Of a stretch of 64,000 nt of DNA, positions 3,001-34,528 are shown in pieces. The notes under the pieces are model-generated. The model was not told the DNA's origin. It was given only the letters and a program-made list of their open reading frames with translations, and ran no database searches. This DNA comes from Eledone cirrhosa. Taxonomy: Eukaryota. Made by a program: the position numbers and the translations under genes. The stretch spans positions 35,278,001 through 35,342,000 of the forward strand of contig OZ024740.1 of NCBI GenBank assembly GCA_964016885.1, written 5' to 3'. Position 1 is the stretch's first letter. Every line of letters starts with the position of its first letter.

Positions 3001-4331
3001 GAGATAGAGGTAAGCAGTGACAGTTAAGGTCTTGGTTAAAATTGTTGATAGGTGAGGACGAGTTAGAGGCAAGCAGTGACAGTTAAGGTCTTGGTTAATA
3101 TTATTGATAGGTGAGGACTAGATAGAGGTAAGCAGTGACAGATAAGGTCTTGGTTAATGTTGTTGATAGGTGAGGACGAGCTAGAGGCAAGCAGGGACAG
3201 TTAAGGTCTTGGTTAATATTATTGATAGGTGGGGACGTGATAGAGTCAAGTAGTGACAGTTAAGGTCTTGGTTAATATTGTTGATAGGTGAGGACGAGAT
3301 AGAGGCAAGCAGTGACAGTTAAGGTCTTGGTTAATATTGTTGATAGGTGAGGACGAGATAGAGGCAAGCAGTGACTGTTAAGGTCTTGGTTAATATTATT
3401 GATAGGTGAGGACGAGATAGAGGCAAGCAGTGACAGTTAAGGTCTTGGTTAATATTATTGATAGGTGAGGACGAGATAGAGGCAAGCAGTGACAGTTAAG
3501 GTCTTGTTTAATATTATTGATAATTGAGGACGTGATAGAGGCAAGCAGTGACAGTTAAGGTCTTGGTTAATATTATTGATAGGTGAGGACGAGATAGAGG
3601 CAAGCAGTGACAGTTAAGGTCTTGGTTAATATTATTGATAATTGAGGACGAGATAGAGGCAAGCAGTGACATTTAAGGTCTTGGTTAATATTATTGATAA
3701 TTGAGGACGAGATAGAGGTAAACAGTGACAGTTAAGGTCTTGGTTAATATTGTTGATAGGTGAGGACGAGATAGAGGCAAGCAGTGACAGTTAACGTCTT
3801 GGTTAATATTGTTGATAGGTGAGGACGAGATAGAGGCAAGCAGTGACAGTTAAGGTCTTGGTTAATATTGTTGATAGGTGAGGACGAGATAGAGGCAAGC
3901 AGTGACAGTTAACGTCTTGGTTAATATTGTTGATAGGTGAGGACGAGATAGAGGCAAGCAGTGACAGTTAAGGTCTTGGTTAATATTGTTGATAGGTGAG
4001 GACGAGATAGAGGCAAGCAGTGACAGTTAACGTCTTGGTTAATATTGTTGATAGGTGAGGACGAGATAGAGGCAAGCAGTGACAGTTAAGGTCTTGGTTA
4101 ATATTATTGATAGGCGAGGACGAGATAGAGGTAAACAGTGACAGTTAAGGTCTTGGTTAATATTGTTGATAGGTGAGGACGAGATAGAGGCAAGCAGTGA
4201 CAGTTAAGGTCTTGGTTAATATTATTGATAGGCGAGGACGAGATAGAGACAAGCAGTGACAGTTAACGTCTTGGTTAATATTATTGATAGGCGAGGACGA
4301 GATAGAAGCAAATCAGTGACAGTTAAGGTCT
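1..4331. repeat. 59-bp tandem satellite, ~73 units (AGGCAAGCAGTGACAGTTAAGGTCTTGGTTAATATT[G/A]TTGATAGGTGAGGACGAGATAG)
   Basis: Unit counted directly; the array runs off the left edge and stops abruptly at ...AAGGTC|TTATTATTA, the tail of an R4/Dong element. Confidence 0.97.
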
Positions 4332-4342
4332 TATTATTATTA

Positions 4343-7300
4343 CAGCTGCATTTATCTTGCTTTATGTTCATTCGAGTTATCACCAAGTCACAACCAGTGA
4401 CCTCAAGAGACAACAAGGTCCGCAATGTTTCAAGAAAGAACATACATACTGACACATGCATCTTTAGGTGTTTAGACTTGTGATGTACTTATATTGACAG
4501 AATCTTCCTTAGTATATGGGCAGTTCCCATTAGTACTATCTTTTGTATTTCTCCTATACGCGGGTTTCCTGGGATTTGCGATAAGTAATCATTAGACCCC
4601 TTAGGTATCATTCCTAGAGCGCCTACAACCACTGGTATTTTTTTAGTTCTCAATTTCCACATTTTTCCAATTTCTATCTCCAGGTCCTTATACTTGCTCA
4701 ATTTTTCAAACGTTTTTATAGATAGATTCTTGTCTATTGGAACAGACATATCAGTTAGCAGGCATACCCTCTTTTTAAAGTCCTTCAATATTATATCAGG
4801 TCTATTTGCATCTATGTGTCGGTCTGTTTGGATGCTAAAGTTCCACAAAATTGAGATGTGATCTTCTTCAAGTATGGGAGGTGGTTGATGCTCCCACCAA
4901 TTCTTTTGATGGGGCAGGTCAAAATGATTACACATTATCCAATGTATGTATTGTGCAGCTCTGTCATGCCTGTTTAGGTATTCGGTTGGAGCTATAGAAC
5001 TGCACATTGAAATTATATGGTCAATGATCTCTGGTTGTTTTTTGCATACACGGCATAATGGGCTGCATCCATTTTTTATTATGTTGGCTTGGTAATTTTT
5101 TGTTGGCAGACACTGATCTTGTGCTGATATAATCAGTCCTTCAGTCTCCGATTTCAGTCCAGAGGATGCCAACCACTGATGGGTTAAAGTTTTGTCAACA
5201 TCAGGATTGTTTGCTAGCTCTGGGTATTTTCCATACAGAGGCTTTTTTTGCCATTTCTTAGCCAGTTTCTGTAGCAGTTCTTTCTTTGCAGTTACTCTTA
5301 CCTGCTTTGCTTTTTCTGTGTTTTCCATTTCAGCAGTAAATGGGACTTCTGAAATTTGTAGTCCATTACTGTATCTTTGTGCATCTTTTGTGATGGAATA
5401 TGATCTTTTGATGCTTTCGTGTTTCAAAACGAGTTTGATCATCCAATCATGTGATTCCCTTAGATATGTAGATAATCCAATTGTTGCAGTTTTCAACGCA
5501 ATGTCTAACTGGATTAACCCACGTCCTCCTTCTTTCCTAGGGAGATATATTCTATCTATATCTGCCTTAGGGTGATGCATTCCGTCTCCTTCACAAACAC
5601 CTAGATATTTGTAAGTTTTTTCTTGATCAAGTTCTCTTATCACGTTCCCCCGATCAAGATTAATGCCTGAACTCTTCAGCAGCTTTCCTCTGGTGAACGT
5701 TGCTTTGGCGCATTTATCTAGTCCAAACTCCATTTTAATGTCATCACTGAACTGCTCCACAGTGGATAATAGCCCTTGCAATTGTTCATCATTTTTTGCA
5801 AATAGTTTCAGGTCATCCATGTAGAACAAGTGATTAATGGTTTTGTCATAGACTTTATATCCATGTTTTGTTTCATTGAGCATTTTACTTAATGGTATAA
5901 GTGCGATGCAGAATAAAAGCGGTGATAAAGAGTCGCCCTCAAAAATTCCACAATTAATATTAACTTCTGCAGCTTCCAGTGATTTTGTTTCACTATTCAA
6001 AAGGAGTGTCTTTTTCCACGTCTTCATACTGAATGACAAAAACCTCCTGACAACGGGGGATATTTTGAAAATCTCTAAACATTTTTCAATCCAACTGTGT
6101 GGCAAACTATCGAATGCTTTTTTATAATCTATCCAAGCAATCGATAGATTTTTGTGTCTATTATGACAATCTTCCTGTATCATTTTGTTAACCAGAAGCT
6201 GATACTTACAGCCATATGAGCCTCGTTTACACCCTTTCTGCTCAATGGGAAATAGGTCATTTGTTATCAGGTGGTCATATGTGTATTCAGTTAGGACTGA
6301 TGTTAAAATTTTATACATTGTGGTCAAGCAAGTTATCGGTCTGTAATTTTTGGGATTGTTTGTCTCATCATTCTTCGGAAGCAGGAATGTAATGCCGTTA
6401 ACTAGCCATGATGGTATCTTTTCTGGCTCCTTAACTATTTCATTGTAAAGTTGGGCTAACAGCTCATGAGACTCTGTGAAGGCATTTATCCAAAAGTTTT
6501 GTATTTTATCTTTTCCTGGGGATTTCCATTTGCTGATTTTTCTTAGAGCCAAGCGCAACTGTTCAACTGTTATATTTTCCCATATTTGTTCCTCAAGGTG
6601 AGCTGTATCTTTCATTTGTCTGTCTATCCATGGGGCATGTATGTTATGAACTTTTTCTTCGGCCCAGATCTTTTCCCAGAATTCTTGCACTTCCTTCTTG
6701 GGTGGTATTGATTTAGCAGTTATTGTTGACTTACCAATTTTTCTGTAGAAGTTTCTTTGGTTGTTTTTGAACATATTATTGTCCTTATAGAATCTAGATC
6801 GTTTTTCAAAGCGCCTTATACGAGCAGCTTTGGCCGATACCTTTTGCTTGATTATTTCTATCAGCATGTCTATGTCACATGTTGATTATATACTGTACTT
6901 TTTTTTCAATTTTCTAAGTTTAGTTTGTTTAACATGTTCACCTACTTTATAGTTTGTTAATATTTCTATGTCAGATCGGAGAAGGTTTATTTGGCGATTG
7001 ATGTTCTCTTGCCAAGTAGATTTCTTGTGGGAATTCCTTTGTTTTTTCATCTTCACTCCACATAAGTGAGTGGTGACTTTAGCCGATGCATAATAGAGAT
7101 GATTTAAATCAGTAATGTTTAGTTTGTTTGTGATGATAATGTTTTTGAGAATTATGTTAGTCTTGTGTATTATATTTTGGTTCTGTTTGGAGTTCTGGAT
7201 CTTAGGGAGGGTGTCTCGTTGCCCCATGTCAGATTCTTTCATTTTCATCCATTCGATCATAATTTCATCCTTCAAGTTGGCAAGTTCATTCTCATTCATT

Positions 7301-8161
7301 TCTTTATCATTTACGATCTCATTATTTTCATTTGGAGTTTCATCCTGAGCATGCACTCCCTCCACTTTTTCGGTCCTTTCTTTAATTTTTTCTGTTGCCA
7401 GTGATTCCGCCCCAACCCTGGGATCCGAAGTGTTACAGTTTACCTCGTTTTCACTGACACATGTTTCATTTTCCCTTCGCTGACTTTGTGCTAATAGCTT
7501 GATCTGATCAATTTCTATATCAGTTAGTAACTTTTTTCTTACAATATTTCTTCGTATATTGGCTAGTTTGTTACTGTCAATATAGCCCCTGTTTTCGGGA
7601 TGTTTCTTTTTCCAGTTGATATATGTCTGTTCTGTATTCGATGTATTTGATGGGTAGTACATGGCAGTGTAGAAAGCCTCAAGGACTTCTTTATTATCTT
7701 CACTTGACCATTTTTCTCTCTTTTTCTTTGGATTTCTTGGTGGTGAGCATGGAGGGCCAACAGTAGGAGTATTCCGGTTATGGGAGGTCTCCAGCTCCGA
7801 AGTGATGGGAAGGTTTGAACCATTAGCTGATTTTTCGACCCCAGTCTGGTTCCTCTCTGAGGGACGCGGCCCTTTTTTACCCGGGTGACGGCCGATCCGG
7901 TATGAGATTTTATCATTAGACATTTACTTTATTTTGTCGCGTTTTATCCTTATCCGCCAAGGGGTAATCATTTCGTGTTACCACTTCTAGAAGGAGTGTC
8001 AACCAAGACTAGAGGGGTCGTTCTCCCCTAGAGACACGGCTATTCCCCGCCGGCCGCCATTCCGGTATTTCTTGGTCACGGGGTTTTCTTTTTGTTGTTT
8101 TTTTAAATCGTTATTATCATGAGTGGTTCCTTAATGTGAGCATTGCGTGGCTTAAGAATGA
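4343..8161 (-). mobile_element. R4/Dong-clade RLE non-LTR retrotransposon, copy 1 (near full length, defective)
   Basis: RT motifs (NYRPITCL, WIDYKKAFDS, HLFYMDDLKL), CCHC finger (CRVC..HIISMC) and RLE (RPDII..D..K.SKY..PVVVGALG). (TAA)n tail at 4331-4342. Both ends match copy 2 at 17293-20130. Confidence 0.9.
4489..7923 (-). pseudogene. Single R4/Dong ORF (N-terminal domain + RT + CCHC + RLE) split by an in-frame TAA at 6886-6888, with a 216-bp in-frame deletion
   Basis: ORFs 6886-7923 and 4489-6867 are in the same frame; 72 aa present in copy 2 (IKHSTMR...LTMHR) are missing here. Confidence 0.88.
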
Positions 8162-8169
8162 AATTATTA

Positions 8170-9069
8170 ATAATTGTCTCCCCTCCAGGCACAAGGCCAG
8201 CAATCACCCAGTGCATTACAATATTATAATATAGTTTTTGCTGAAGTTGCCTGTTATTGTTGTTGGCTATGTCGGTGGTGGTGCCGGGGCTTTTTATATT
8301 GTTGGTGAGGAAGGGGTGAGCCAGCAGTCCCATAGTTGTTGATGTTGACGTTTGGCCGGTGGCCAGGTCACTAAGTCAATCTATTTATATCTTTTGCTAG
8401 CCTCTCCCTTGTCTAGTGATACCGCCACCTTCCCCTTTCTCTCTCAAGTTAACAGGGGAATAGTGGTGGTAGCAATGAAGGAGTAGTGGCGGTGGTGATG
8501 GGATAGTGGTAGCAATGATGGATGGGGTGGTAGCGGCGGTGGCGTTGTCGTTACTGAGTTTTGTGATATGTAGTATCTATGAGTTTGTGTTCGTATGTTT
8601 AATATATATTGTGTTGACATATTCCCGTAAAATTGGAATTAAACATTTTGTTAAAACTTGAGACAATAATAATAGTAACTATTATTATGATGCTGGGATT
8701 GATGGTGGTGGTGATGAAATTGCCGTTATCTGGCTGTTATATTTAGTGTGATGGGATAGGTGTTGTATCAAGTTTCTGGTGTTGGTGAAATTGCTGTTAT
8801 TTGGCTGTTCTATATAGTGTAGACAGAGGGTGTTTTCTTCCATTTATAACCATTTTCTTTTTTTGAATACAAAATATATAATACAAAATTGAATATTTGA
8901 GCGATATAACAATATAATATGGATCCGAAATTTTATGGGACTTGATTCGGTGGTTTATGCAACATTTGTACTAAGAATTGTAATTTCACAATTGATTTAA
9001 ATATGTTAAAAATCAAAAACTAACGGGAGCGATTTCATGACCTTCTACCACCTCGTGCGTCTTCTTCCC

Positions 9070-9070
<1 letters not shown>
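8170..9070 (-). repeat. Unclassified repeat, possibly the 5' end of another retroelement; partly repeated at ~17091-17245
   Basis: 8466-8646 resembles 17091-17245 (GTGGTAGCAATGAAGGAG...GTGTTGACATA...TTGGAATTAAACATT); abuts (TTA)n at 9070. Confidence 0.45.

Positions 9071-9142
<72 letters not shown>
9070..9142. repeat. (TTA)n microsatellite at the 5' junction of Tx1-like copy 1
   Basis: Seen directly. Confidence 0.97.
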
Positions 9143-9352
9143 GGCGACCTACGTAGTAAATCGTATCATCGTGAGCTCCGCAAAGGTTTGTTATTTCCGT
9201 TTGTTAAAAATTGCCATTTATGGAAAAATTTTATTGTTAACTATATATAAGTGCACATACATTGTTTTCCGAAAAGGACACCCAAAAAGATTGGGGCCTT
9301 GTGCCCAAAATTTAAACTTTTATGATTATCCAAAAATTTCTTTGAAAAAAAA

Positions 9353-11347
9353 ATGGCTAATTCACCACTGCACCAAGCAGCTGAAAGCCTTTCTCACAAA
9401 TTAACACCTCACACCGACACCACCATTGTAAATGATATTACGTCTGCCAACACACACAATTTAAGCACTAGCAATATTTTAAATTTGTCTCAGGCAGACA
9501 TTCATTTCCCGCCATTACCAATGACTGCAGGTGTTAAAGCCGCCACCAGGACCACCACCGCGACAACCACCACCACCACCACCACCACCACCACCACCGC
9601 GACAACAGAAACAAAAGGAAAAAATAAATCAACTCGTGATGTCGAAATATTTTCCAAAATGGACTCTCCCAAACAGAATTTCACTGACGTCACCACCACC
9701 ACAACTAAAACTAAAATTAATAATAACAAAAATAACGATAGCAACAACAACAACAATGACATAAAAAAAACCACCCTCAGTTTTGCCAGAGTAGCAAAAC
9801 AGTTCGAAGCATATACGGTAACTCAGGAGGATTTAGAAAATGCCAAACAAATGGTAAAGAAAGATGGGTACAGGGTCAGCCTCACCCCGCCACCTAATAA
9901 AATGGAGCATCGGCGCCTATGCACTGTGTCGTATCGAACAATAAATGTAAAATCGTGCCGAGTGGAACGAGCATCCGAGTCCCAAATCCAAAAAGCTTTG
10001 GGACATGTGTGGGCAAGAAAAACCCACATCAGACGTGGGCAGAAGTATGGAACCGTGGACGTGTTCTTTGAAACACCAGAGGAGGCTAGAGAACACTCCA
10101 TGGCCCCATTAAGAAGTGACGATTTCACACTGGTCCCAAGCTATTGTGGCCAGAGACTCGTAAAGATCAGGGTGACCCACGTTCCACCGGCCATCGAAAT
10201 TCCCTGGCTAATAGCGGCCGTCCTCGCCGGCATCGAAGCCAACACAAAAATAATAGCAATAGCAAAAGAAAAGCAGGAGAACTGGTCCGTATCTGGGATG
10301 GAGCTCCTGATCCAAGCGGACCCAAAAAACATTGAGGAGATCCCAGAGGTAATAGACCTCACTGACGGCAACCACCTCACCGTAATTGTCGAGGGCAGAA
10401 GACCTAGGTGTGTCGTTTGTGGTGAAGGAACCCACCTAAGGGCTTTCTGCCCTCAGGCTAAAAGGTTGAGGCCACCTCTCCTACCCACCCCAGTGACACA
10501 ACCATCAACACCACCAGTAGCAGAGATGGCAGCAACAACTGTAGCAGCAACAACAGAAGCAACTATAACAGCAACAACCCCAGCAACAGTAGCAAAACCA
10601 ACACCACCACCACAAGCAAAACCAACACCACCACCACCCAACGCTTCAGAACTAGCACCAGCGCCTACACCATCCACCACGCCACAACCAAAACTAACGC
10701 CTGTGGAGGATTTTCCACTCCCCGGCCTATCACAACTGGAGACAGATTGTGACGACGAGGAGTGGGAAACGGTATCAGGAAAAAAAAAAAGAAACCAAAA
10801 AAGAAAAAATTCTCAACCTTCCCCCTCCAAAAACAAAATACAGAGGGAAACAAATAAATTAACAAACAAAAAAGTTAGGACAGATATGCCACCATCCACA
10901 CCAGCATCACCAACCCCATCAACCCAAACACCAACACCATCACCATCATTAACCCCAACACCACCATCACCTACACCACAAAAGTCACCAAAATGCGAAA
11001 CAGGAACAAACCCATAACAAACGCAAACAAAACAAAACAACCAAAACGATACACATTACACAGCATTAAATTTGAACAACAAGCAATTATTACACTACAT
11101 CCAACACAACACCAGCATCACAGAAAAAGACTACACAACAACCCCAAAATTCACACCACCTCCACACATACAAATCACTCGCATCACACAGAAAACGTAC
11201 ATGACACTAAAACAAAAATTCCCCAAAGACATCGGAGACTTCCGACAAGCACTCTCCAGGAGGATTTATAAGGACATCCTTCCTGAGGAGGCCACAAGCA
11301 ATGAAAAGAATGGAAAAACCGTCGTTCCTCTACGAGAAGTAAGGTAA
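9353..11347 (+). pseudogene. ORF1 (gag-like, CX2CX4HX4C knuckle, T/P-rich), ~664 codons, premature TAA at 11015-11017
   Basis: Knuckle CVVCGEGTHLRAFC; ORF 11072-11347 is in the same frame; the other copies have CAA at this stop position. Confidence 0.85.
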
Positions 11348-11381
11348 GTGGTCTTTCCCATCTTTTCCACTCCTTTTCTAC

Positions 11382-14300
11382 ATGACCTCACTCAGAATAG
11401 GCAGCATAAATGCGCGTGGCTTGGGGTCGTCATGGAAGCAGGGCCACCTGCTCAACGACCTCAGGTCACTAAACATAGATGTAGTGGCCATCAGCGAGAC
11501 CAGAATCTCCGAAGCACGGGCCTTCGCACCGATCTTCGGCGGCTACGATGTGTACGCATCACCCAGCCGTCCGAGATCGGGGGGAGGAGTTGCTGTGCTT
11601 TTTCGGAGAGGTTTGGATCTTGCCATACGGGCCATCTTCCTGGACCCAGAAGGTAAGTTGGTGGTGCTAGACGTGACCAGCGGAGACGGGCAAGCTTTCA
11701 GGTTAGTGGCCGTCTATGCCCTGACAGGAGCAGGGCGGCCTGATTTCTTCCGGCGTCTGGAGACCTTTCTTGGAACGTCTCGCTCTTTAGTGTTAGTGGG
11801 CGACTAGAACGGGATCTTAGATGCACGCTGGGATTGTGTGGGATTAGTGGATAGGGAAGGAGGGTGCAAGAGTCTCACCAACCTGCTCAGGCGTTTTGAA
11901 CTGTCTGACAGGTACCGAATGGATTTCCCGAATGTACCAATGTGGACTTGGACAAATCGCATAGGGTCATCCAGATCATATCTAGATAGAGTATTTTGTA
12001 GGGAAATAGATAGGTCTAGCATAGGCTGTCCACAATTCAAGATAGTCAGCTACACGGACCACAAATTCGTGATCTGTGTGCTTGACTTAGATAGGCTTCA
12101 TAGACGAGGACCCGGCTACTGGAAGCTAAACGCGTCCTTACCAGCACGCAAGGCCTACAGAGACCGAATTAGCGAACTAGTTAAGCGGGCGTTGACGGGG
12201 GCCATCGTCAACAACAAGTGGTGGTTTGCTCTGAAAAGAGCAATTAGAATAGAGTCCATTAGGTTTAGTAAGACTTTAGCAATAGAGAAAAATAGAGCAG
12301 AGGGAGAATTAGTTAGAAAATTAGGTGAGGCGCTTAGTAAAGGCATCGCGACCGACGTACTTGCGGCGAAATTGGCCCTTGACCAATTCTTCAATGCAAA
12401 GCACGAAGGCTGCGTTGTCAGAGCTAGGGTGCGTGCTCTCAGATACGAGGGGACGAAAGCCGTTCAATGGGCCCGAGTGGCGGAGGCGCGTCGTGGCAAC
12501 AAAGCCACGATCCGGTCTTTGGTGGACCACGACGGGCGCATGCTAATCGATCCGGGGCAAATGTGTGAAGCTTTTCAGCGACACTTCGCTCAACTGTTCG
12601 GGGGTAGTGGCGGGCCGGATCGAGGGATGGACTTTAGTGTCTACCTCGACGGACTGCCGCGGCTTTCGGCCACTGAGGCGGAGTGTTGCGAAAAGCCGAT
12701 AACAACCGCTGAAGTACGGGATGCAATGACTAGTTGCACAAGGGGTAAATCGCCTGGTTTGGATGGTCTGCCCTATGAACTTTACGTACAAATGCCAAAC
12801 TTGTTCGGAGGCCTCTTGGCGGACGTCTACTGCAACTGGCAACAGAACGGGAGAATTCCCAGCTCTGTGAGCCGAGGAGCGGTGGCGCTGCTGAGAAAGG
12901 ATCCGAACAAGGGGGATAACATAGATAATTTTAGGCCCATAACTCTGCTAAACACAGAGTTCAAGATTTTGGCCAAGGTGCTAGCAAAGAGGTTGGCGCT
13001 TGTCGTTGGTGGTCTGGTGGGAGAGGCGCAGACATGCGCCATTCCCGACAGATCCATCCACGACAACCTCCACCTCATGCGATACATCGTAGAGAGGGTA
13101 GCTAGGGAACCTGGCACGGGTGGGTCTTTGATCAATTTAGATCAGTCGAAAGCCTTCGATAGGGTCGACCATCGTTACCTAGCGGCAGTCCTGAGGGCGG
13201 CTGGCTTTGGGCCCGTCTTCAGAGGCTGGATCGCTGCCATGCACAGCGACATATGCTCTGTAGTGAGAGTAAACGGTCACCTTTCGGAACCGTTCAACAT
13301 CATGCGCTCGGTCCGCCAAGGATGTCCCCTCTCGTCCCTATTGTACGTATTGACTCTAGAGCCATTACTGCACAAACTGGAGACGTTGAGGGGGTTCCCG
13401 CGCGAACTAGGATGCGCAAGATCCGTGTCAGCATATGCCGACGATGTCACCGTGGTGGTGTCGAACGCCAAACACATCGAGGCGATCGGCACTACACTAA
13501 GAGAATACGAAGCGGTGACAGGAGCAATGATCAACCAGGAAAAGTCAGTGGGCCTGCAGCTCGGCACCTGGATAGGCAGGTCCATGCCGTCCAACAGCGT
13601 CGTCGGGCGCTGGACGGACGGACCGGTTAAATTGCTAGGGGTCTGGTTCGGTCCAGACCTCCAGACGGACAAAAACTGGGACGAGGTGACGAGCAGGGTG
13701 GCTTCTCTCACCCAGAAATGGGCCGAGAGGAAGCTATCCCTGAAAGGTCGAGCGGAGGTGGCGAATGCGTACATCTCGTCCGTCATCTACTACCGCCTGA
13801 CCGTCGTACCTTGTCCTAAGCCCCGCCTGACTGCGCTGGAGCGTTTGCTCTTTCGCTTCTTGTGGAAGGGACGCGCTCCGATGGTCAGGCGGTCCATCTG
13901 CTGTCAACACCCGCTACGTGGAGGGCTGGGCATGCCGTGGCTGATGATGCGCAGACACGCGCTCAGGCTACGACATCTCCACCTCTTCCTCGACGGTGAT
14001 CAGGTGTGTTCGCCGTTTGCAAGACACGTTTTTCCCCAGCTCGTCTCCTTGACGGAGCTGCAGTCCTGGGTCAAGCGAAGACCGAGTGGGAGCGCTTGGA
14101 GACTGGAATGTCTTCAGGCGCTCACAGCCCTCGACCAATCGGGCAATGTGATCGGTGGAAACTCCACCTTGGCGTTCTATAGGGGATTAGTGGAGGGGAA
14201 GAGCGACGACGTACTTGGAGAAACTCTAGGCGTCGACGAAAATCAACTAGCCAATCTCTTCGGAAGGACTTTCGGGCCGGAGCCTATGGACAATTTCCAG

Positions 14301-14801
14301 AAATCCCTGGCCTGGCAGTGCTACCGGGGTGCTTTGCCAGTTCGGGATAAACTCTACAGGCATGGAGGTGCCGTCAGCCGGGCATGTCCGAGATGCGAAC
14401 AGGGCGACGAAACCGTCCTGCACGCACTCGTCCAGTGTCCGAGCATTGCTGACTTGTGGTTTTATGTCGAACACCTGCTGTCACGTGTAGGACGGATCCA
14501 GCTATCAGCTGAGTCCATCGTGAGGATTGCCCCGCCCTTTTACTTTAGCCGGGAAGGGCAGGCAGTTTTTATCTGTCTGGTGGCCATGGCGAAAGAGATA
14601 GTATGGTGGACACGTTTGAAAGGGCTGAAGACGAGCACTTACCTCTTCGGTGATGCCCTGATTAACTTTTTCAAATTTCATTTGAAAAGGAAAATCAGGG
14701 TAGAGAGGGAAGTGCTCTCTTCCCAACATTTTCTTGAAAGATGGGTGAGAGAAACAAGTATGGCCCGAATGAATGGGCCTTCTCTGAGTATGTGTCTGTA
14801 A
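11382..14801 (+). pseudogene. ORF2: APE endonuclease + reverse transcriptase + CCHC, one in-frame TAG (11805-11807, TGG in copies 2 and 3)
   Basis: SINARGL, ISETR, LVGD[W]N, YLDRVF, YTDHK; RPITLLN, LDQSKAFD, RQGCPLS, AYADD; CPRC..ETVLHALVQC. Confidence 0.92.
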
Positions 14802-15043
14802 ATTAAAGGTGGAAAACTGGGAGAGGGCACTTGCCCTGGTGGTCAGGGCCACTGTGGTCTTTTAATGGGCTTTCTCCACAAATGTCCCTTGGAAGTCTCC
14901 CCCCTATTGGGGAATTTTTCTTTGTTATTTTATTTCAACCTCTGTTTTTTTACACGCAGAAATGCCCATTTGTACCGTCCTGTATTGTCCTGTACTGTCC
15001 TTAATGTCTACTTTATGTGAACCCTTGTGGTTAATAAAGAAAA

Positions 15044-15044
<1 letters not shown>

Positions 15045-15127
<83 letters not shown>
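15045..15127. repeat. (TTA)n tract after Tx1-like copy 1
   Basis: Seen directly. Confidence 0.97.
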
Positions 15128-15142
15128 CAATAATAATAATAT

Positions 15143-16640: not shown

Positions 16641-17242
16641 AAACAAACAAACAGGCAGAAAAAACCCAAAAATGAATAAGCATAAGTTTCATTGTAATGT
16701 AGTGTTCGGATGTCTGACTTAGTTTTTCCCTTCTCTTCTCTGTCCGTCCGCTTGTTTCTCCATTCTTATTTTCTTTACGTTTTTTTTTGTTTTTGTTTTT
16801 CTCTGTTTGTTTTTTTTTGTTATTTTTGTTGTTGTTGTTGTTGTTGCTGTGCTGCTTTGGTTTTGATTTTTGTTTTTTCTTTTGAGTCTATCTATATATT
16901 TTGATGCCTTCCTCTTTTTTAGTAGGAATTCTATAATGTGGTAGCAGTGCTGTGCTAGCAGCAACTAACAGGAAGCAATGGGAGAGAATAGCGGCGGTAG
17001 CGATACTGAGACAGTGGTGGTGGTGATGTCGATACTGAGGCAGTGGTGGTGGTGATGTGATCGTATTACTGTACTGATGGTGTTGTAGCGGTGGTAGCAA
17101 TGAAGGAGTGGTGGCGGCGGTGATGGGATAGTGGTAGTAATGATGGATGGGCGGCGTTGTCGTTACTGATGTCCGTTCGGTGAATCTATGGGGTTAGTCG
17201 CGTACATGTGTTGACATAAATTCCCTTAATGTTGGAATTAAA

Positions 17243-17292
<50 letters not shown>

Positions 17293-17293
<1 letters not shown>

Positions 17294-20130: not shown

Positions 20131-20156
20131 TTATTATTATTATTATTATTATTATT

Positions 20157-23100: not shown

Positions 23101-26049
23101 GGCTTCATAGACGAGGACCCGGCTACTGGAAGCTAAACGCGTCCTTACCAGCGCGCAAGGCCTACAGAGACCGGATTAGCGAACTAGTTAAGCGGGCGTT
23201 GACGGGGGCCATCGTCAACAACAAGTGGTGGTTTGCTCTGAAAAGAGCAATTAGAATAGAGTCCATTATGTTTAGTAAGACTTTAGCAATAGAGAAAAAT
23301 AGAGCAGAGGGAGAATTAGTTAGAAAATTAGGTGAGGCGCTTAGCAAAGGCATCGCGACCGACGTACTTGCGGCGAAATTGGCCCTTGACCAATTCTTCA
23401 AAGCAAAGCACGAAGGCTGCGTTGTCAGAGCTAGGGTGCGTGCTCTCAGACACGAGGGGACGAAAGCCGTTCAATGGGCCCGAGTGGCGGAGGCGCGTCG
23501 TGGCAACAAAGCCACGATCCGGTCTTTGGTGGACCACGACGGGCGCATGCTACTCGATCCCGGGTAAATGTGTGAAGCTTTTCAGCGACACTTCGCTCGA
23601 CTGTTCGGGGGCAGTGGCGGGCCGGATCGAGGGATGGACTTTAGTGTCTACCTCGACGGACTACCGCGGCTTTCGGCCACTGAGGCGGAGTGTTGCGAAA
23701 AGCCGATAACAACCGCTGAAGTACGGGATGCAATGACTAGTTGCACAAGGGGTAAATCGCCTGGTTTGGATGGTATGCCCTATGAACTTTACGTACAAAT
23801 GCCAAACTTGTTCGGAGGCCTCTTGGCGGACGTCTACTGCAACTGGCAACAGAACGGGAGAATTCCCAGCTCTGTGAGCCGAGGAGCGGTGGCGCTGCTG
23901 AGAAAGGATCCGAACAAGGGGGATAACATAGATAATTTTAGGCCCATAACTCTGCTAAACACAGAGTTCAAGATTTTGGCCAAGGTGCTAGCAAAGAGGT
24001 TGGCGCTTGTCGTTGGTGGTCTGGTGGGAGAGGCACAGACATGCGCCATTCCCGACAGATCCATCCACGACAACCTCCACCTCATGCGATACATCGTAGA
24101 GAGGGTAGCTAGGGAACCTGGCACGGGTGGGTCTTTGATCAATTTAGATCAGTCGAAAGTCTTCGATAGGGTCGACCATCGTTACCTAACGGCAGTCCTG
24201 AGGGCGGCTGGCTTTGGGCCCGTCTTCAGAGGCTGGATCGCTGCCATGCACAGCGACATCTGCTCTGTAGTGAGAGTGAACGGTCACCTTTCGGAACCGT
24301 TCAACATCATGCGCTCGGTCCGCCAAGGATGTCCCCTCTCGTCCCTATTGTACGTATTGACTCTCGAGCCATTACTGCACAAACTGGAGACGTTGAGGTG
24401 GGTCCCGCGCGAACTAGGATGCGCAAGATCCGTGTCAGCATATGCCGACGATGTCACCGTAGTGGTGTCGAACGCCAAACACATCGAGGCGATCGGCACT
24501 ACACTAAGAGAATACGAAGCGGTGACAGGAGCAATGATCAACCAGGAAAAGTCAGTGGGCCTGCAGCTCGGCACCTGGAGAGGCAGGTCCATGCCGTACA
24601 ACAGCGTCGTCGGGCGCTGGACGGACGGACCGGTTAAATTGCTAGGGGTCTGGTTCGGTCCAGACCTCCAGACGGACAAAAACTGGGACGAGGTGACGAG
24701 CAGGGTGGCTTCTCTCACCCAGAAATGGGCCGAGAGGAAGCTATCCCTGAAAGGTCGAGCAGAGGTGGCGAATGCGTACATCGCATCCGTCATCTACTAC
24801 CGCCTGACCGTCGTACCTTGTCCTAAGCCCCGCCTGACTGCGCTGGAGCGTTTGCTCTTTCGCTTCTTGTGGAAGGGACGCGCTCCGATGGTCAGGCGGT
24901 CCATCTGCTGTCAACACCCGCTACGTGGAGGGCTGGGCATGCCGTGGCTGATGATGCGCAGACGCGCGCTAAGGCTACGACATCTCCACCTCTTCCTCGA
25001 CGGTGATCAGGTGTGGTCGCCGTTTGCAAGACACGTTTTTCCCCAGCTCGTCTCCTTGACGGAGCTGCAGTCCTGGGTCAAGCGAAGACCGAGAGGGAGC
25101 GCTTGGAGACTGGAATGTCTTCAGGCGCTCACAGCCCTCGACCAATCGGGCAATGTGATCGGTGGAAACTCCACCTTGGCGTTCTATAGGGGATTAGTGG
25201 AGGGGAAGAGCGACAACGTACTTGGAGAAACTCTAGGCGTCGACGAAAATCAACTAGCCAATCTCTTCGGAAGGACTTTCGGGCCGGGGCCTATGGACAA
25301 CTTCCAGAAATCCCTGGCCTGGCAGTGCTACCGAGGAGCTTTGCCAGTTCGGGATAAACTCTACAGGCATGGATGTGCCGTCAGCCGGGCATGTCCGAGA
25401 TGCGCGCAGGGCGACGAAACCGTCCTGCACGCACTCGTCCAGTGTCCGAGCATTGCTGACTTGTGGGTTTATGTCGAACACCTGCTGTCACGTGTAGGAC
25501 CTATCCGGCTATCAGCTGAGTCCATCGTGAGGATTGCCCCGCCCCCTTCCTTTAGCCTGGAAGGGCAGGCAGTTTTTATCTGTCTGGTGGCCATGGCGAA
25601 AGAGATAGTATGGTGGACACGTTTGAAAGGGCTGAAGACGAGCACTTACCTCTTCGGTGATGCCCTGATTAACTTTTTCAAATTTCATTTGAAAAGGAAA
25701 ATCAGGGTAGAGAGGGAAGTGCTCTCTTCCCAGCATTTTGTTGAAAGATGGGTGAGAGAAGCAAGTATGGCCCGAATGAATGGGCCTTCTCTGAGTATGT
25801 GTCTGTAAATTAAAGGTGGAAAACTGGGAGAGGGCACTTGCCCTGGTGGTCAGGGCCACTGTGGTCTTTTAATGGGCTTTCTCCACAAATGTCCCTTGGA
25901 ACTCTTCCCCCTATTGGGGAATTTTTCTTTGTTATTTTATTTCAACCTCTGTTTTTTACACGCAGAAATGCCCATTTGTACCGTCCTGTATTGTCCTGTA
26001 CTGTCCTTAATGTCTACTTTATGTGAACCCTTGTGGTTAATAAAGAAAA

Positions 26050-26050
<1 letters not shown>
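20157..26050 (+). mobile_element. Tx1/L1-clade family A copy 2 (full length)
   Basis: Same termini as copy 1. ORF1 ~20366-22354 has frameshifts and a TAA at 22031-22033; ORF2 22389-25808 has one in-frame TAA at 23565-23567. Confidence 0.93.
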
Positions 26051-26113
<63 letters not shown>

Positions 26114-29100
26114 GGCGACCTACGTAGTAAATCGTATCATCGTGAGCTCCGCAAAGGTTTGTTATTTTCAGTTATTTAAAATTGCCATTTATGTAAAATT
26201 TTTATTGTTAACTATATATAAGTACACATACATTGATTTCTGAAAAGGACACTCAAAAATATTGGGGCCTTGAGCCCAAAATTTAAACTTTTTATAATTA
26301 TCAAACAAAAAATTTTTTCTTTGAAAAATAATGGATGACTCAGATTCACTCCTTCCTCACAATCCAACACCTCACACCGACACCACCATTGTAAACATTG
26401 CTACGTTTGCCAACACTGGAATTGTAAGCAGTAGCAATATTTTAAATTTGTCTCAGGCAGACGTTCATTTCCCGCCATTACCAATGACTGCAGGTGTTAA
26501 AGCTGCCACCACCACGCCACCACCACAGCGACAACCACCACCCCCACCACTACCACAGCGACAACTGAAACAAAAGAAAAAAAAATTAACTCATGATATC
26601 GAAATAAATTCAACCAAAATGAACTATTCCACACCGAACACCACTGACGCCACCACCACCACCACAACTGAAACTAAAATTAACAATAGCAAAAATAACG
26701 ATAATAACAACAGCAACAATGAAATTAAGAAAACTACCCTGAGTTTTGCCAGAGTAGCAAAAACGTGCGAAGCGATTCAGGTAACTCAGGAAGAATTAGA
26801 CGAAGCCAAAAAAATGGTAAAACCTCACCCCCCACCTAATAAAATGGAGCAACGTCGCCTATGCACCGTGTCTTATCGGACAATAAACATAAAATCGCGC
26901 CGAGTGGAACGGGCATCTGAGTCCCAAATCCAAAAAGCTTTGGGACATGTGTGGGCAAAAAACCCCCACATCATACGTGGGCAGAAGTATGGAACCGTGG
27001 ACGTGTTCTTTGAAACACCACAGGAGGCCAGAGAACACTCCATGGCCCCATTAAGAAGTGAAGACTTCACACTCATCCCAAGCTATTGTGGCCAGAGACT
27101 TGTGAAGATCAGGGTGACCCACGTTCCACCGGCCATCGAAATTCCCTGGCTAATGGCGGCCGTCCTCGCCGGCATCGAGGCAAACACCAAAATAATAGAA
27201 ATAGCAAAAGAAAAGCAGGAGAACTGGTCCGGATCTGGGATGGAGCTCCTGATCCAAGCGGACCATAAAAGCATTGAAGAGATCCCAGCGGTAATAGACC
27301 TCACTGACGGCAGCCACCTCACCGTAATCGTCGAGGGCAGAAGACCTAGGTGTGTCGTTTGTGGTGAAGGGACCCACCTAAGGGCTTTCTGCCCTCAGGC
27401 TAAAAGGTTGAGGCCACCTCTCTTACCCACCCCAGTGACTCAACCATCAACACCACCAGCAGCAGAAATAGCAGCAACAACTGTAGCAGCGACAACAGAA
27501 GCAACTGTAACAGCAACAACCCCAGCAACAGTAGCAAAACCAACACCACCACCACCCAACACCCCAGAACTAGCACCAGCGCCTACACCATCCACCACGC
27601 CTCAACCAAAACCAACGCCTGTGGAGGATTTTCCACTCCCCGGCTTATCGCAACTGGAGACAGATTGTGACGACGAGGAGTGGGAAACGGTATCAAGAAA
27701 AAAGAAAAAAAAAAGAAACCAAAAAACAAAAAATTCTCTTCCTTCCCCCTCAAAAAACAAAATACAGAGGGAAACAAATAAATTATCGAACAAGAAAGTT
27801 AAGACAGATATGCCACCATCCACACCAGCATCACCAACCCCATCACCACAAACACCAACACCATCACCATCATTAACCCCAACACCACCATCACCAACAC
27901 CACAAAAGTCACCAAAAAGCGTAACAGAAACAAACCCACAACAAACGCAAACAAAACAAAACAACCAAAACGATACACACTACACAGCATTAAATTTGAA
28001 CAACAACCAATTATTACACTACATCTAACACAACACCAGCATCACAGAAAAAGACTACACAACAACCCAAATGTTCACACCACATCCACACATACAAATC
28101 ACTCGCATCACACAGAAAACGTACACGACACTAAAACAAAAATTCCCCAAAGACATCGGAGACTTCCGACAAATACTCTCCAGGAGGATTTATAAGGACA
28201 TCCTTCCGGAGGAGGCCACAAGCAGTGAAAAGGATGGACAAACCATCCTTCCTTTACGAGAAGTAAGGTAAGTGGTCTTTCCCATCTTTTCCACTCCATT
28301 TCAACATGACCTCACTCAGAATAGGCAGCATAAATGCGCGTGGCTTGGGGTCGTCATGGAAGCAGGGCCACCTGCTCAACGACCTCAGGTCACTAAACAT
28401 AGATGTAGTGGCCATCAGCGAGACCAGAATCTCTGAAGCACGGGCCTTCGCACCGATCTTCGGCGGCTACGATGTGTTCGCATCTCCCAGCCGTCCTGGA
28501 TCGGGGGGTGGAGTTGCTGTGCTTTTTTGGAGAGGTTTGATCTCGCCATACGAGCCATCTTCCTGGACCCAGAAGGTAAGTTGGTGGTGCTGGACGTGAC
28601 CAGCGGAGACGGGCAAGCTTTCAGGCTAGTGGCCGTCTATGCCCCGACAGGAGCAGGGCGGCCTGATTTCTTCCGGCGTCTGGAGACCTTTCTTGGAACG
28701 TCCCGCTCTTTAGTGTTAGTGGGCGACTGGAACGGGATCTTAAATGCACGCTGGGACTGTGTGGGATTAGCGGATATCGGAGGAGGGTGCAAGAGTCTCA
28801 CCAACCTGCTCAGGCGTTTTGAAATGTCTGACAGGTACCGATTGGATTCCCGAATGTGCCAATGTGGACTTGGACAAATCGCATAGGGTCATCCAGATCA
28901 TATCTAGATAGAGTATTTTGTAGAGAAATAGATAGGTCTAGCATAGGCTGTCCACAATTCAAGATAGTCAGCTACACAGACCACAAATTCATGATCTGTG
29001 TACTTGACTTAGATAAGGCTTCATAGACGAGGACCCGGCTACTGGAAGCTAAACGCGTCCTTACCAGCGCGCAAGGCCTACAGAGACCGGATTAGCGAAC

Positions 29101-31899
29101 TAGTTAAGCGGGCGTTGATGGGGGCCAAGTGGTGATTTTCTCTGAAAAGAGCAATTAGAATAGAGTCCATTAGGTTTAGTAAGGCTTTAGCAATAGAGAA
29201 AAATAGAGCAGAGGGAGAATTAGTTAGAAAATTAGACGATGCGCTTTGCAAAGGCATCGCGACCGACGTGCTTGCGGCAAAATTGGCCCTTGACCAATTC
29301 TTCAATGCAAAGCACGAAGGCTGCGTTGTCAGAGCTAGGGTGCGTGCTCTCAGATACGAGGGGACGAAAGCCGTTCAATGGGCCCGAGTGGCGGAGGCGC
29401 GTCGTGGCAACAAAGCCACGATCCGGTCTTTGGTGGACCACGACTGGCGCATGCTACTCGATCCCGGGCAAATGTGTGAAGCTTTTCAGAGACACTTCGT
29501 TCAGTGGTTCGGGGGCAGCGGCGGGCCGGATCGAGGGATGGACTTTAGTATCTACATCGACGGACTGCCGCGGCTCTCGGCCACTGAGGCGGAGTGTTGC
29601 GAAAAGCCGATAACAGCCGCTGAAGTACGGGAGGCAATGACTAGCTGCACAAGGGGTAAATCGCGTGGTTTTGGATGGTCTGCCCTATGAACTTTACGTA
29701 CAGATGCCAGACTTGTTCAGAGGCCTCTTGGCGGACGTCTACTGCAACTGGCAACAGAACGAGAGAATTTCAAGCTCTGTGAGCCGAGGAGCTGTGGCGC
29801 TGCTGAGAAAGGATCCGAACAAGGGGGATAACAGATAATTTTAGGCCCATAACTCAGCTAAACACAGAGTTCAAGATTTTGGCCAAGGTGCTAGCAAAGA
29901 GTTTGGTGCTTGTCGCTGGTGGTCTGGTGGGAGAGGCGCAGACATGCGCCATTCCCGACAGATCCATCCACGACAACCTCCACCTCATGCGATACATCGT
30001 AGAGAGGGTAGCTAGGGAACCTGGCACGGGTGGGTCCTTGATCAATTTAGATCAGTCGAAAGCTTCCTATAGGGTCGACCATCATTACCTAGCGGCAGTC
30101 CTGAGGGCGGCTGGCTTTGGCCCGTCTTCAGAGGCTGGATCGCTGCCATGCACAGCAACATCTGCTCTGTGGTGAGAGTGAACGGTCACCTTTCGGAACC
30201 GTTCAACATCATGCACTCGGTCCGCCAAAGATGTCCCCTCTCGTCCCTCTTGTACGTATTGACTCTCGAGCCATTACTGCACAAACTGGAGACGTTGAGG
30301 GGCGTCCCGCGCGAACTAGGATGCGCAAGATCCGTGTCAGCATATGCGGACGATGTCACCGTAGTGGTGTCGAACGCCAAACACATCGAGGCGATCGGCA
30401 CTACACTAAGAGAATACGAAACGGTGACAGGAGCAATGATCAACCAGGAAAAGTCAGTGGGCCTGCAGCTCGGCACCTGGATAGGCAGGTCCATGCCGTC
30501 CAACAGCGTCGTCGGGCGCTGGACGGACGGACCTGTTAAATTGCTCGGGGTCTGGTTCGGTCCGGACCTCCAGACGGACAAAAACTGGGACGAGGTGACG
30601 AGCAGGGTGGCTTCTCTCACCCAGAAATGGGCCGAGAGGAAGCTATCCCTGAAAGGTCGAGCGGAGGTGGCTAACGCGTATATCACGTCCGTCATCTACT
30701 ACCGCCTGACCGTCGTACCTTGTCCTAAGCCCCGCCTGACTGCGCTGGAGCGTTTGCTCTTTCGCTTTTTGTGGAATGGACGCGCTCCGATGGTCAGGCA
30801 GTCCATCTGCTGTCAACACCCGCTACGTGGAGAGCTGGGCATGCCGTGGCTGATGATGCGCAGACACGCGCTCAGGATACGACATCTCCAGCTCGTCTCC
30901 TTGACGGAGCTGCAGTCCTGGGTCAAGCGAAGACCGAGAAGGAGCGCTTGGAGTCTGGAATGTCTTCAGGCGCTCACAGCCCTCGACCAATCGGGCAATG
31001 TGATCGGTGGAAACTCTACCTTGGCGTTCTATAGAGGATTAGTGGAGGGGAAAAGCGTCGACGTACTTCGAGAAACTCTAGGCGTCGACGAAAATCAACT
31101 AGCCAATCTCTTCGGAAGGACTTTCGGCCGGGGCCTATGGACAACTTCCAGAAATCCCTGGCCTGTCAGTGCTACCGGGAGCTTTGCCAGGTCGAGATAA
31201 ACTCTACAGGCATGGAGGTGCCGTCAGCCGGGCATGTCCGAGATGCGCGCAGGGCGACGAAACCGTCCTGCACGCACTCGTCCAGTGTTCGAGCATTGCT
31301 GACTTGTGGGTTTATGTCGAACACCTGCTGTCGCGTGTGGAACGGATCCAGCTAACAGCTGAGTCCATCGTGAGGATTGCCCCGCCCTCTTCCTTTAGCC
31401 GGGAAGGGCAGGCAGTTTTTATCTGTCTGGTGGCCATGGCGAAAGAGATAGTATGGTGGACACGTTTGAAAGGGCTGAAGACGAGCACTTACCTCTTCGA
31501 TGATGCCCTGATTAACTTTTTCAAATTTCATTTGAAAAGGAAAATCAGGGTAGAAAGAGAAGTGCTCTCTTCCCAGCATTTTGTTGAAAGATGGGTGAGA
31601 GAGGCAAGAATGGTCCGAGTGAATGGGCCTACTCTGAGTATGTGTCTGTAAATTAAAGGTGGAAAACTGGGAGAGGGCACTTGCCCTGGTGGTCAGGGTC
31701 ACTGTGGCTTTTTAATGGGCTTTCTCCACCAATGTCCCTCGGAAGTCTCCCCCCTATTGGGGAATTTTTTTCATTGTTCTATTATTACATCCTCTGTTTC
31801 CTTTTTTTACACGCAGAAATGCCCATTTGTACCGCCCTGTATTGTCCTGTACTGTCCTTAATGTCTACTTTATGTAAACCCTTGTGGTTAATAAAGAAA
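26114..31899 (+). mobile_element. Tx1/L1-clade family A copy 3 (full length, most decayed)
   Basis: Directly tandem to copy 2 through (TTA)n at 26051-26113. ORF1 26331-28271 has a TAA at 28026-28028; ORF2 28306-31651 has several frameshifts and small deletions; degenerate TTA tail to ~31937. Confidence 0.92.
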
Positions 31900-32043
31900 T
31901 AATAATTATTATTATTATTATTTTTATTATTATTATCATATATATATATCTAGTGTAGGTAGTACGGTGAAATACTGGTGTTGGTACCAAATCAAGCACT
32001 CTATGCACAGGTAGAGTGTATATAATACAAAAAAACAATGAAA

Positions 32044-33383: not shown

Positions 33384-33705
33384 ATGGTCATTTTGCGAAT
33401 TTTGCCAATAAAAACACACGGGCTATTCTATTTTCACTTCATCTTTATTATTAGTTTTTAATTAATTCGTCAAAGCTTTGACGAATTAATTAATAACTTA
33501 TAATAAAGCTGAAGTGAAAACCGAATAGTGCGCGTGTATTTATTGGCAAAATGACCATCCTCAAATACCAGTTTTATTATGAGTTATTAATTAGTTTGTC
33601 AAAGATTTGATGAATTAACCAAAAACTAATAATAAAGCTGAAGACAAAACCGAATAGTCCATGTGTTTTTATTGACAAAATTGGGGAAATGACCATCTTC
33701 AAATA
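33384..33705. repeat. Small fold-back/MITE-like palindrome centred on CGTCAAAG|CTTTGACG (33475/33476) plus a second partial copy; mirrored at ~41770-42090
   Basis: ATGGTCATTTTGC...GGCAAAATGACCAT arms with no central spacer. Confidence 0.8.
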
Positions 33706-33773
33706 CAACATTATCTATTTCAACATATCAAGAATCTTGCAAAAAAAATACATAAACGTAGCAGATTATAAAA

Positions 33774-33912
33774 CTAGTAAGAAAGTGCAGTATTTTAAAT
33801 GTTGTAAAGCTAGTAAGAAAGTGCAGTATTTTAAATGTTGTAAAGCTAGTAAGAAAATGTAATATTTTAAATGTTGTAAAGCTAGTAAGAAAATGTAAAA
33901 TTTTAAATGTAA
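33774..33912. repeat. 36-bp minisatellite, ~4 units (mirrored at ~41560-41700)
   Basis: CTAGTAAGAAAGTGCAGTATTTTAAATGTTGTAAAG repeats. Confidence 0.9.

Positions 33913-34493: not shown

Positions 34494-34528
<35 letters not shown>

Follow-up and report, generated by a model that had tools for sequence, protein, structure and literature searches.

The locus examined here raises the question of how two kinds of non-LTR retrotransposon came to share one run of TTA repeats, each kind in a fixed orientation. We analyzed a window of 64,000 nt from Eledone cirrhosa (GCA_964016885.1, contig OZ024740.1, positions 35,278,001-35,342,000 of the forward strand). TRF and direct reading resolved a block of approximately 27 kb, in which six non-LTR elements were parted by seven (TTA)n tracts (Table 1). 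Orientation within the array was fixed by type, with the three L1/Tx1-like copies on the + strand and the three Dong-like pieces on the - strand. An array of this layout had been claimed in a preliminary description and was borne out, except that the last tract starts at 31905 instead of 31900. Outside this block, in the other 36 kb of the window, TRF listed no ATT-type tracts. We consider it very probable that the block arose when a single (TAA)n/(TTA)n microsatellite received six independent insertions, and that both types are likely aimed there by their own, unrelated endonucleases.

Table 1. Positions of the repeat tracts and retroelement copies in the window.
Feature	Position	Strand	Remarks
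(TTA)4	4331-4342	.	separates the 59-bp satellite (1-4332) from the 3' end of RLE copy 1
RLE (Dong-like) copy 1	4343-9069	-	full length by termini; 5' GGGAAGAAGACG..., 3' ...GCAGCTG
(TAT)24	9070-9142 (73 bp)	.	joins the 5' end of RLE copy 1 to the 5' end of Tx1-like copy 1
L1/Tx1-like copy 1	9143-15044	+	5,902 bp; ORF1 9326-11017; ORF2 11343-14801
Compound tract, ~33 units	15045-15145	.	(ATT)27 then ATCAATAATAATAATATTAT
Fragment of a second Dong-like family	15146-17243	-	N-terminal pre-RT coding region only; ORF 15273-16505
(ATT)16	17244-17292	.	TRF and direct reading
RLE (Dong-like) copy 2	17293-20129	-	5'-truncated at ~position 901; internal deletion 1272-2467; 212-bp segment kept
(ATT)9	20130-20156 (27 bp)	.	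TRF and direct reading
L1/Tx1-like copy 2	20157-26050	+	full length; 25 private substitutions, fewest of the three
(ATT)21	26051-26113	.	TRF and direct reading
L1/Tx1-like copy 3	26114-31904	+	full length, most decayed; 128 private substitutions; 92% identity to copy 1
(ATT)10 (approximate unit count)	31905-31936	.	right edge of the array
TATC family piece a	50943-52889	+	5'-truncated at element position 3894; ends ...CTGTGGCTAATAAAGAAACA
(TATC)19	52890-52966	.	between TATC family pieces a and b
TATC family piece b	52967-55988	+	5'-truncated at position 2800
(ATCT)9.5	55989-56026	.	directly after TATC family piece b

The three copies on the + strand share their junctions. At the 5' end, a repeat reading ...TTATT is followed by GGCGACCTACGTAG, and at the 3' end ...AATAAAGAAA(AC/TA) passes at once into (ATT)n, with no poly(A); in copy 1, AATAAA stands immediately ahead of the 3' end. 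ORF2 of copy 1 comprises APE, RT and zf-RVT and carries one stop. Pfam detected Exo_endo_phos, RVT_1 and zf-RVT not only in the + copies but also in an ORF2 elsewhere in the genome that is open over 1,152 codons. Direct reading and Pfam thus agree with the earlier statement that three APE copies lie on the + strand with a shared 5' junction and without poly(A). The solved structure nearest to the RT was human L1 ORF2p (E 1.3e-44, with R2 at 9e-22), a coarse comparison in which only L1 and R2 structures were represented, and that nearest to the nuclease was L1 EN. The 702-codon ORF1 of this family had no Pfam match and includes a CCHC zinc knuckle, CVVCGEGTHLRAFC. A CCHC zinc knuckle in ORF1 is typical of Tx1 and plant L1 elements. 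The nearest named homologues were from cephalopods (Argonauta hians, 68%; Acanthosepion pharaonis, 37%), in homologue lists that were mostly unlabelled, and a protein atlas returned generic names only for both the Tx1-like and the RLE protein. A metagenome scan with the ORF2 profile yielded 80 loci at 24-43% identity; repeats were looked for in 17 of these, of which one ended in poly(A) and none contained a TTA tract.

Some sequencing data touch the 3' junction of copy 1. Contigs of four runs compared with positions 14300-15060 gave short repeat fragments only, and one contig of run X6 continued as TTA repeats past 15049; both are weak data.

On the - strand, RLE copies 1 and 2 belong to one family. 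Copy 1 has one in-frame stop and is without a segment of ~212 bp that is present in copy 2 and in most genomic copies. When a 20-sequence profile of this family was compared with the R2 protein, a single alignment (E 9e-56) ran through the RT, CCHC and PD..D..K nuclease motifs, and a single sequence of the family gave the same arrangement of RT, CCHC and restriction-like endonuclease. The earlier claim of two element types with different nucleases is therefore upheld by Pfam, by the solved structures and by the profile comparison with R2, according to which the APE and the restriction-like endonuclease are unrelated. The accompanying claim of three RLE pieces, all on the - strand, held for the strand of all three and for the nuclease of two; the piece at 15146-17243 belongs to another Dong-like family, and neither an RT nor an RLE domain was found in it. 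Its matches amounted to 36% identity over 77 aa (E 5e-14) and, in a colinear alignment, to 22% over 281 aa (E 4e-4). The 3' part of this fragment is absent, a loss that simple target-primed insertion does not produce. The possibility that the fragment marks a site of internal insertion was considered but rejected, since the missing 3' part was not found on the far side of the array. The main RLE family has at least two other Dong-like families as companions in the tract here. The names "Tx1-type" and "R4/Dong-type" are provisional, resting on domain architecture, nearest solved structures, behavior and the labels of octopus repeat papers rather than on a phylogeny of reference elements.

The RLE-TTA-Tx1 order occurs twice in the window, as would be expected if the array had arisen from one such pair through local segmental duplication or unequal crossing-over. 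Further, on contig 28 four RLE 5' ends are spaced exactly 4,955 bp apart, which could reflect tandem duplication. However, in a tree of 23 full-length copies, the three Tx1-like copies of the window fell into three separate clades, with 49, 25 and 128 private substitutions in copies 1, 2 and 3, respectively. Of these, A>G changes made up 2, 2 and 12, respectively, which gives no excess of the kind that RNA editing would leave. Copy 1 is no nearer to copy 2 (96.6% identity) than to copies on other chromosomes (~96-97%). The two RLE copies also differ in 5' end, internal deletion and the 212-bp segment, and the tracts between the paired elements are of unequal length (73 and 27 bp). The placement in three clades indicates that the array grew through independent insertions and not by duplication. 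Segmental duplication, named in the preliminary description as a competing origin, is thus excluded for this window by the tree and by the differing truncations and deletions of the copies, and we regard it as highly improbable.

We next consider the flanks of copies across the genome, counting every terminus found in the window and in loci L001-L094. The sampled copies were the best-scoring 20-40 of ~750-1,900 first-look candidates per query and are biased toward young copies. (ATT)n lay directly upstream of all 56 Tx1-like 5' ends, and an ATT-type repeat lay downstream of all 57 Tx1-like 3' ends. For the RLE family, (TAA)n followed the 3' end in 29/29 cases and preceded the 5' end in 26/31; in the remaining five, (GAA)n stood between the element and the TAA tract. 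By sample, the counts were 20/20, 20/20, 18/18 (full-length copies), 20/20 and 20/20. No terminus in the opposite orientation was found in the window or in L001-L094: at the sampled loci, the sense strand of the Tx1-like elements was always on the ATT strand and that of the Dong-like elements always on the TAA strand.

A repeat that ends every copy could also be a 3' tail encoded by the element itself, of the sort that many CR1, L2 and RTE elements have, and carried to random insertion sites. The 5' flanks counted above speak against this, being the same repeat in both families. Further, the repeat was found directly upstream of copies truncated at the 5' end, namely in two of the three Tx1-like copies judged (L011 and L017, but not L034) and in 11 of 17 RLE copies, being absent in the other six. 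At several loci (for example, L022, L027, L029 and L039), the DNA beyond the tract was unique and non-repeat in both directions. Because the repeat precedes most truncated copies as well, it is a target and not merely a tail. Thus, the tabulation of flanks and orientations proposed earlier favors a target, with the repeat on both sides and a fixed strand, and the upstream repeat at truncated copies excludes an encoded tail with random 5' flanks, an explanation to which we assign next to no probability.

A sister Tx1-like family that uses (TATC)n is present in the same window and is new here. Its ORF2 is 68% identical to that of the (ATT)n family over 801 aa (APE, 63%; RT, 77%). (TATC)n followed the 3' end in 20/20 copies, and a TATC-type tract lay ahead of six of seven full-length and seven of ten truncated copies. 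The sister family keeps its own flanking repeat; thus, the repeat goes with the family.

Insertion may proceed as follows. In the Tx1-like family, nicking by the APE would occur on the (AAT)n strand, with reverse transcription primed on (AUU)n at the 3' end of the RNA; an AATAAA just upstream would leave this (AUU)n stretch within the transcript. For the RLE, the nick would fall on the other, (TTA)n strand, and priming would take place on a (UAA)n RNA tail. The tract would be split by every insertion, which would probably also add RNA-templated repeats on its 3' side. In this way both strands would go on offering target to the two families, allowing mixed arrays, head-to-tail and opposite-facing, to build up. 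From the repeats on both sides of every insertion, we infer that the landing pad is "self-renewing", as the preliminary description termed it. No empty site or polymorphic insertion was seen, and the state before integration is likewise inferred.

Alternatively, both nucleases might nick A+T-rich DNA loosely, and the pairing of repeat-tailed RNA, (AUU)n or (UAA)n, with the nicked strand might select the sites, in which case what looks like target specificity would stem from the RNA 3' end and not from the nuclease. The adjoining repeat does match the phase and strand of each family's own 3' end, and the sister family has other 3' terminal bases as well as another repeat after them. Moreover, L1-type nucleases prefer T^A steps, which (TAA)n offers. 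Against this, the TATC-family copy L175 lies outside any microsatellite and is flanked by a 12-bp duplication beginning with a single TATC, suggesting that a very short motif is recognized at the nick. The 5' junctions of full-length Tx1-like copies were also in one repeat phase in 37 of the 38 sampled, a regularity that pairing could explain too. Taken together, the observations are compatible with both readings; we judge selection by the RNA tail unlikely and retain targeting by the two endonucleases as the preferred explanation.

The background frequency of long tracts of this kind can be estimated. Perfect (ATT)15 gave ~83,700 overlapping matches in 3.0 Gb, and the 100 matches listed corresponded to 17 tracts; a rough extrapolation from these 100 gives ~14,000 tracts genome-wide, or about one per 200 kb. 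Against that background, the array holds four tracts of at least 16 units inside 27 kb. We took the first 17 tracts of at least 15 ATT units, in positional order, on contig 1. At least one flank was a repeat known from other TTA loci in 15 of the 17, and both flanks were in 12.

On a broader reading of these results our judgment is evenly balanced. It holds that the long (TAA)n microsatellites of this genome are for the most part made and inhabited by a retroelement guild, composed of several Tx1-like subfamilies, a SINE with a 3' end mimicking theirs and no fewer than three Dong-like families, with two unrelated nucleases acting on opposite strands, and that Tx1-like sisters 32% apart in ORF2 switched between (ATT)n and (TATC)n. 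If this is true, the sister families are a natural pair in which to trace the features that determine where an APE-type nuclease cuts; the use of different repeats by families 68% identical narrows the search for target-setting residues or RNA features. The convergence of APE and RLE elements on opposite strands of one simple repeat makes the same recognition problem comparable within one genome. Target-specific LINEs are models for programmable site-directed insertion and for mobile DNA that spares its host. Further, that most of the long TTA tracts sampled on contig 1 adjoin recurrent repeats bears on the origin of microsatellites, and the role of TTA tracts as retroelement junctions in a 3-Gb genome bears on the difficulty of assembling and annotating such regions.

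For elements like Dong, (TTA)n is a known target; for L1/Tx1-like elements, it appears not to have been described. The literature searched held no description of a (TAA)n-targeting Tx1 element; Repbase and Dfam entries, which lay outside that search, may hold one. Dong is described as inserting into (TAA)n (PMC3812793), and octopus repeat papers count "Dong-R4" among the LINEs that are abundant and were recently active (PMC13282606, PMC8967140). Like Dong (Bombyx mori Dong, DongAg and DongBg), the - family combines RT, CCHC and a restriction-like endonuclease and is bordered at either end by (TAA)n, as read on its sense strand. According to the account in PMC3774820, Bombyx Dong carries an HDV-like 5' ribozyme that cuts just after the upstream TAA repeats. 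In contrast, no such ribozyme was detected in the - family: Rfam gave no match in positions 4000-32500 of the window at E up to 1, such ribozymes being hard to find by sequence, and no P1 helix was seen by eye in the first 60 bases of the RLE element. E. cirrhosa also differs in that the other Dong-like families noted above occupy the tract as well.

Kibi, Koshi and the crocodilian Tx1 families are described as APE LINEs aimed at (TC)n, (TTC)n and (TTCC)n/(TTTC)n microsatellites (PMC4494074). As far as that description goes, the families reported here resemble them as APE LINEs on microsatellites in which related families use different repeats. They differ in the repeats themselves, (ATT)n and (TATC)n, in having a mollusc and not a vertebrate host, and in that the (ATT)n target also serves an RLE family, on the opposite strand. 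Keno (Tx1 clade, APE) and Utopia (RLE) are reported to have evolved specificity for U2 snRNA genes in parallel (PMC4640811), and they too represent an APE and an RLE element converging on the same target. In that account, theirs is a single site in a gene, whereas here the target is a microsatellite used on opposite strands. Unlike at the Keno/Utopia site, each insertion here would leave target on both sides, so that arrays form.

TRAS and SART are two LINE families that occupy one insect telomeric short tandem repeat in opposite, fixed orientations, and both are APE elements of the R1 clade. The E. cirrhosa array likewise has two LINE families in opposite, fixed orientations in one short repeat; in contrast to TRAS and SART, it brings together two unrelated machineries.

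Seven period-3 TTA/ATT tracts had been claimed in the preliminary description, and TRF together with direct reading bore them out at window positions 4331-31936; the TRF listing for the remainder of the window contained no ATT-type tract. Six elements, three on each strand, occupied the spaces between the tracts. Within the tract at 15045-15145, (ATT)27 gave way to ATC(AAT)4ATTAT, so that one strand carries the repeat and then its complement; this suggests a rearrangement between tracts. The switch adjoined a 3'-truncated Dong-like fragment.

Features of the window and of the (TTA)n array
Feature	Position	Strand	Remark
59-bp satellite, 73 copies	1-4332		abuts array on left
RLE-family piece (RLE copy 1)	4343-9069	-	same family as 17293-20129
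Tx1-like copy	9143-15044	+	
Fragment of another Dong-like family	15146-17243	-	protein-level colinearity
RLE-family piece	17293-20129	-	same family as 4343-9069
Tx1-like copy	20157-26050	+	
Tx1-like copy	26114-31904	+	
Inverted arm	32921-36889		
Inverted arm	38565-42551		
(TCT)120	46548-46909		
TATC-family piece	50943-52889	+	5'-truncated
TATC-family piece	52967-55988	+	5'-truncated
CA-rich complex repeat	58791-60604		
47-bp satellite, 71 copies	60634-63993		

The three Tx1-like copies were 92-97% identical pairwise. All three shared one 5' junction, as first described, between ...TTATT and GGCGACCTACG. All three ended in AATAAAGAAA(AC/TA), followed immediately by (ATT)n without poly(A). Exo_endo_phos, RVT_1 and zf-RVT domains were present in the window copies and in an intact 1,152-codon ORF2 at another locus. 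Among solved structures only, the RT was nearest to human L1 ORF2p (E 1.3e-44, versus 9e-22 for R2) and the nuclease was nearest to L1 EN. Further, ORF1 carried a CCHC knuckle and had no match in Pfam, and the nearest homologues bearing names were cephalopod.

In the - family, Pfam detected RVT_1 only. A profile of 20 homologues matched the R2 protein (E 9e-56) in one stretch that comprised the RT, a CCHC motif and PD..D..K nuclease motifs. On the basis of these domain and profile matches, we concluded that the two families encode different types of nuclease, apurinic-like (APE) in the Tx1-like family and restriction-like (RLE) in the - family. All three - pieces had been described as R4/Dong-type (RLE); two of them belong to one RLE family. 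The third (15146-17243), in which RT and nuclease are absent, had no DNA-level match to this family, and its protein was colinear with the pre-RT N-terminal region of the family. The piece thus represents a fragment of a different Dong-like family.

Searches of the 3.0-Gb assembly that contains the window used 250-258 bases from each end of the two families as queries. There were at least 1,922 and at least 1,267 first-look candidates for the Tx1-like ends and at least 1,808 and at least 757 for the RLE ends; the best 40 were scored and 20 loci were fetched per query, the sampled copies being the best-scoring and hence younger ones. When every terminus in the window and in the fetched loci up to L094 was counted, ATT-type flanks adjoined all Tx1-like 5' ends (56/56) and 3' ends (57/57). 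TAA-type flanks adjoined 29/29 RLE 3' ends and 26/31 RLE 5' ends, and in the remaining five (GAA)n separated the element from the TAA tract. This set contained no reversed terminus, confirming the fixed orientation, and the 5' junction kept to a single repeat phase in 37 of the 38 full-length Tx1-like copies sampled. (GAA)n runs of this kind were found at the RLE 5' junctions of L063, L070, L073, L079 and L009; the RLE 5' end itself starts GGGAAGAAGA, and the runs look like slippage or untemplated extension.

Truncated copies provide the sharpest test because their upstream flank must be target. (ATT)n was directly upstream of two of the three judgeable 5'-truncated Tx1-like copies (L011 and L017, not L034), and (TAA)n was directly upstream of 11/17 5'-truncated RLE copies. 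Further, non-repeat unique DNA was present past the tracts on both sides at several loci. These observations, together with the 5' flanks, indicate therefore that the repeat is a target and not a tail alone; a tail with random 5' flanks is contradicted by the collected copies.

Segmental duplication of one insertion pair, the other alternative raised at the outset, was ruled out as the origin of the array. The Tx1-like window copies were placed in three separate clades by maximum-likelihood analysis of 23 full-length copies and carried 49, 25 and 128 private substitutions, and the RLE window copies were unlike in 5' end, internal deletion and a 212-bp segment. The unequal numbers of private substitutions show that the Tx1-like window copies are of different age. 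Because 5/23 copies kept the ORF2 frame of 1,146-1,152 codons, Tx1-like activity may be recent.

Two further arrangements were observed. In contig 28 of the assembly (G000, ~114443349-114458468), four RLE 5' ends had a spacing of exactly 4,955 bp; the RLE element forms a tandem array there, reflecting either repeated insertion or tandem duplication. The inverted arms of the window (~4 kb; pairs I1 and I2), given as 100% complementary, flank a centre of 1,675 bp with a 423-codon ORF that had no match in Pfam. The arms come either from an inverted duplication of very recent date or from a fold-back artefact of the assembly.

Perfect (ATT)15 had ~83,700 overlapping matches in the assembly. Among the first 17 distinct (ATT)15 tracts along contig 1, a positional and unselected sample, at least one flank was a repeat known from other TTA loci in 15, and both flanks were such repeats in 12. 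The tracts were bordered on the ATT strand by, among others, additional Tx1-like subfamilies together with a short tRNA-like SINE, and on the TAA strand by, among others, a second Dong-like family (...CAATGACTGAGACTCAAAG), the commonest neighbour in this sample (8/17 right flanks). Elements with this ending, followed by (AAT)n, were seen at L041, L046 and L048 and in the right flanks of L082, L084, L086, L089, L092 and L093. The SINE has a tRNA-like B-box stretch, and its 3' end (..CCTTGTGCCTAAAGTAGAAACA) is similar to that of the Tx1-like family. Like that family, it is followed by (ATT)n and faces the same way; it is likely a non-autonomous partner of the Tx1-like family. SINE-like elements were found at L081 (549-682) and in the flanks of L008, L035, L036, L025 and L028. 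The L081 element and RLE copy 1 (positions 851-883; window ~8187-8219) shared 31-33 bases at 97% identity, in the RLE sense.

The TATC family is a Tx1-like sister family. (TATC)19 lies between its two pieces in the window, and (ATCT)9.5 runs on from the second piece to 56026. Its ORF2 was 68% identical to that of the TTA family over 801 aa (APE 63%, RT 77%), and the 3' ends of the two families (TATC, ...CCCCTGTGGCTAATAAAGAAACA; TTA, ...CCCTTGTGGTTAATAAAGAAAAC) were homologous, that of the TATC family being followed by (TATC)n. TATC units followed the 3' end in 20/20 fetched copies, one of which had a single unit only. All seven full-length copies started AGACGTGTGT, downstream of a TATC-type tract in six and (TA)n in one, and 7/10 truncated copies had a TATC tract upstream. 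Thus, genome-wide, the repeat goes with the family, as in Kibi and Koshi. A 5'-truncated copy outside any microsatellite (L175) had a 12-bp direct duplication, TATCTGTAACAG, beginning TATC, which hints that one TATC can serve as a nick site.

Strands, flanks and domains are shown for both families; we infer the insertion steps from target-primed reverse transcription, the established mechanism of both APE and RLE LINEs. In the Tx1-like family, the nick would be made by the APE in the (AAT)n strand, with reverse transcription beginning on (AUU)n close to the 3' end of the RNA. An AATAAA signal lies 8-13 bases upstream of the Tx1-like element end, a position that would direct RNA cleavage within the downstream repeat. 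In the RLE family, the nick would fall in the (TTA)n strand, with priming on (UAA)n. Next to 18 full-length copies, the pure repeat had a median length of 30 bases 5' of the element and 40.5 bases 3' of it, and the target therefore persists on both sides. Target specificity may be set either by the nuclease or by RNA-DNA pairing.

In the portions of the literature considered here, 'L1-Tx1' and 'Dong-R4' are among the recently active LINEs of octopus repeat papers (Dong-R4: PMC13282606, PMC8967140), which name no target for either in those portions. Our searches of published papers turned up no Tx1 family with (TAA)n or (TATC)n as its target. Other papers describe (TAA)n as the target of Dong elements (PMC3812793), (TC)n, (TTC)n and (TTCC)n/(TTTC)n as Tx1-clade targets (PMC4494074), and a single U2 site reached in parallel by Keno (APE) and Utopia (RLE) (PMC4640811). 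The (ATT)n and (TATC)n families resemble Kibi and Koshi in that a repeat is tied to each family.
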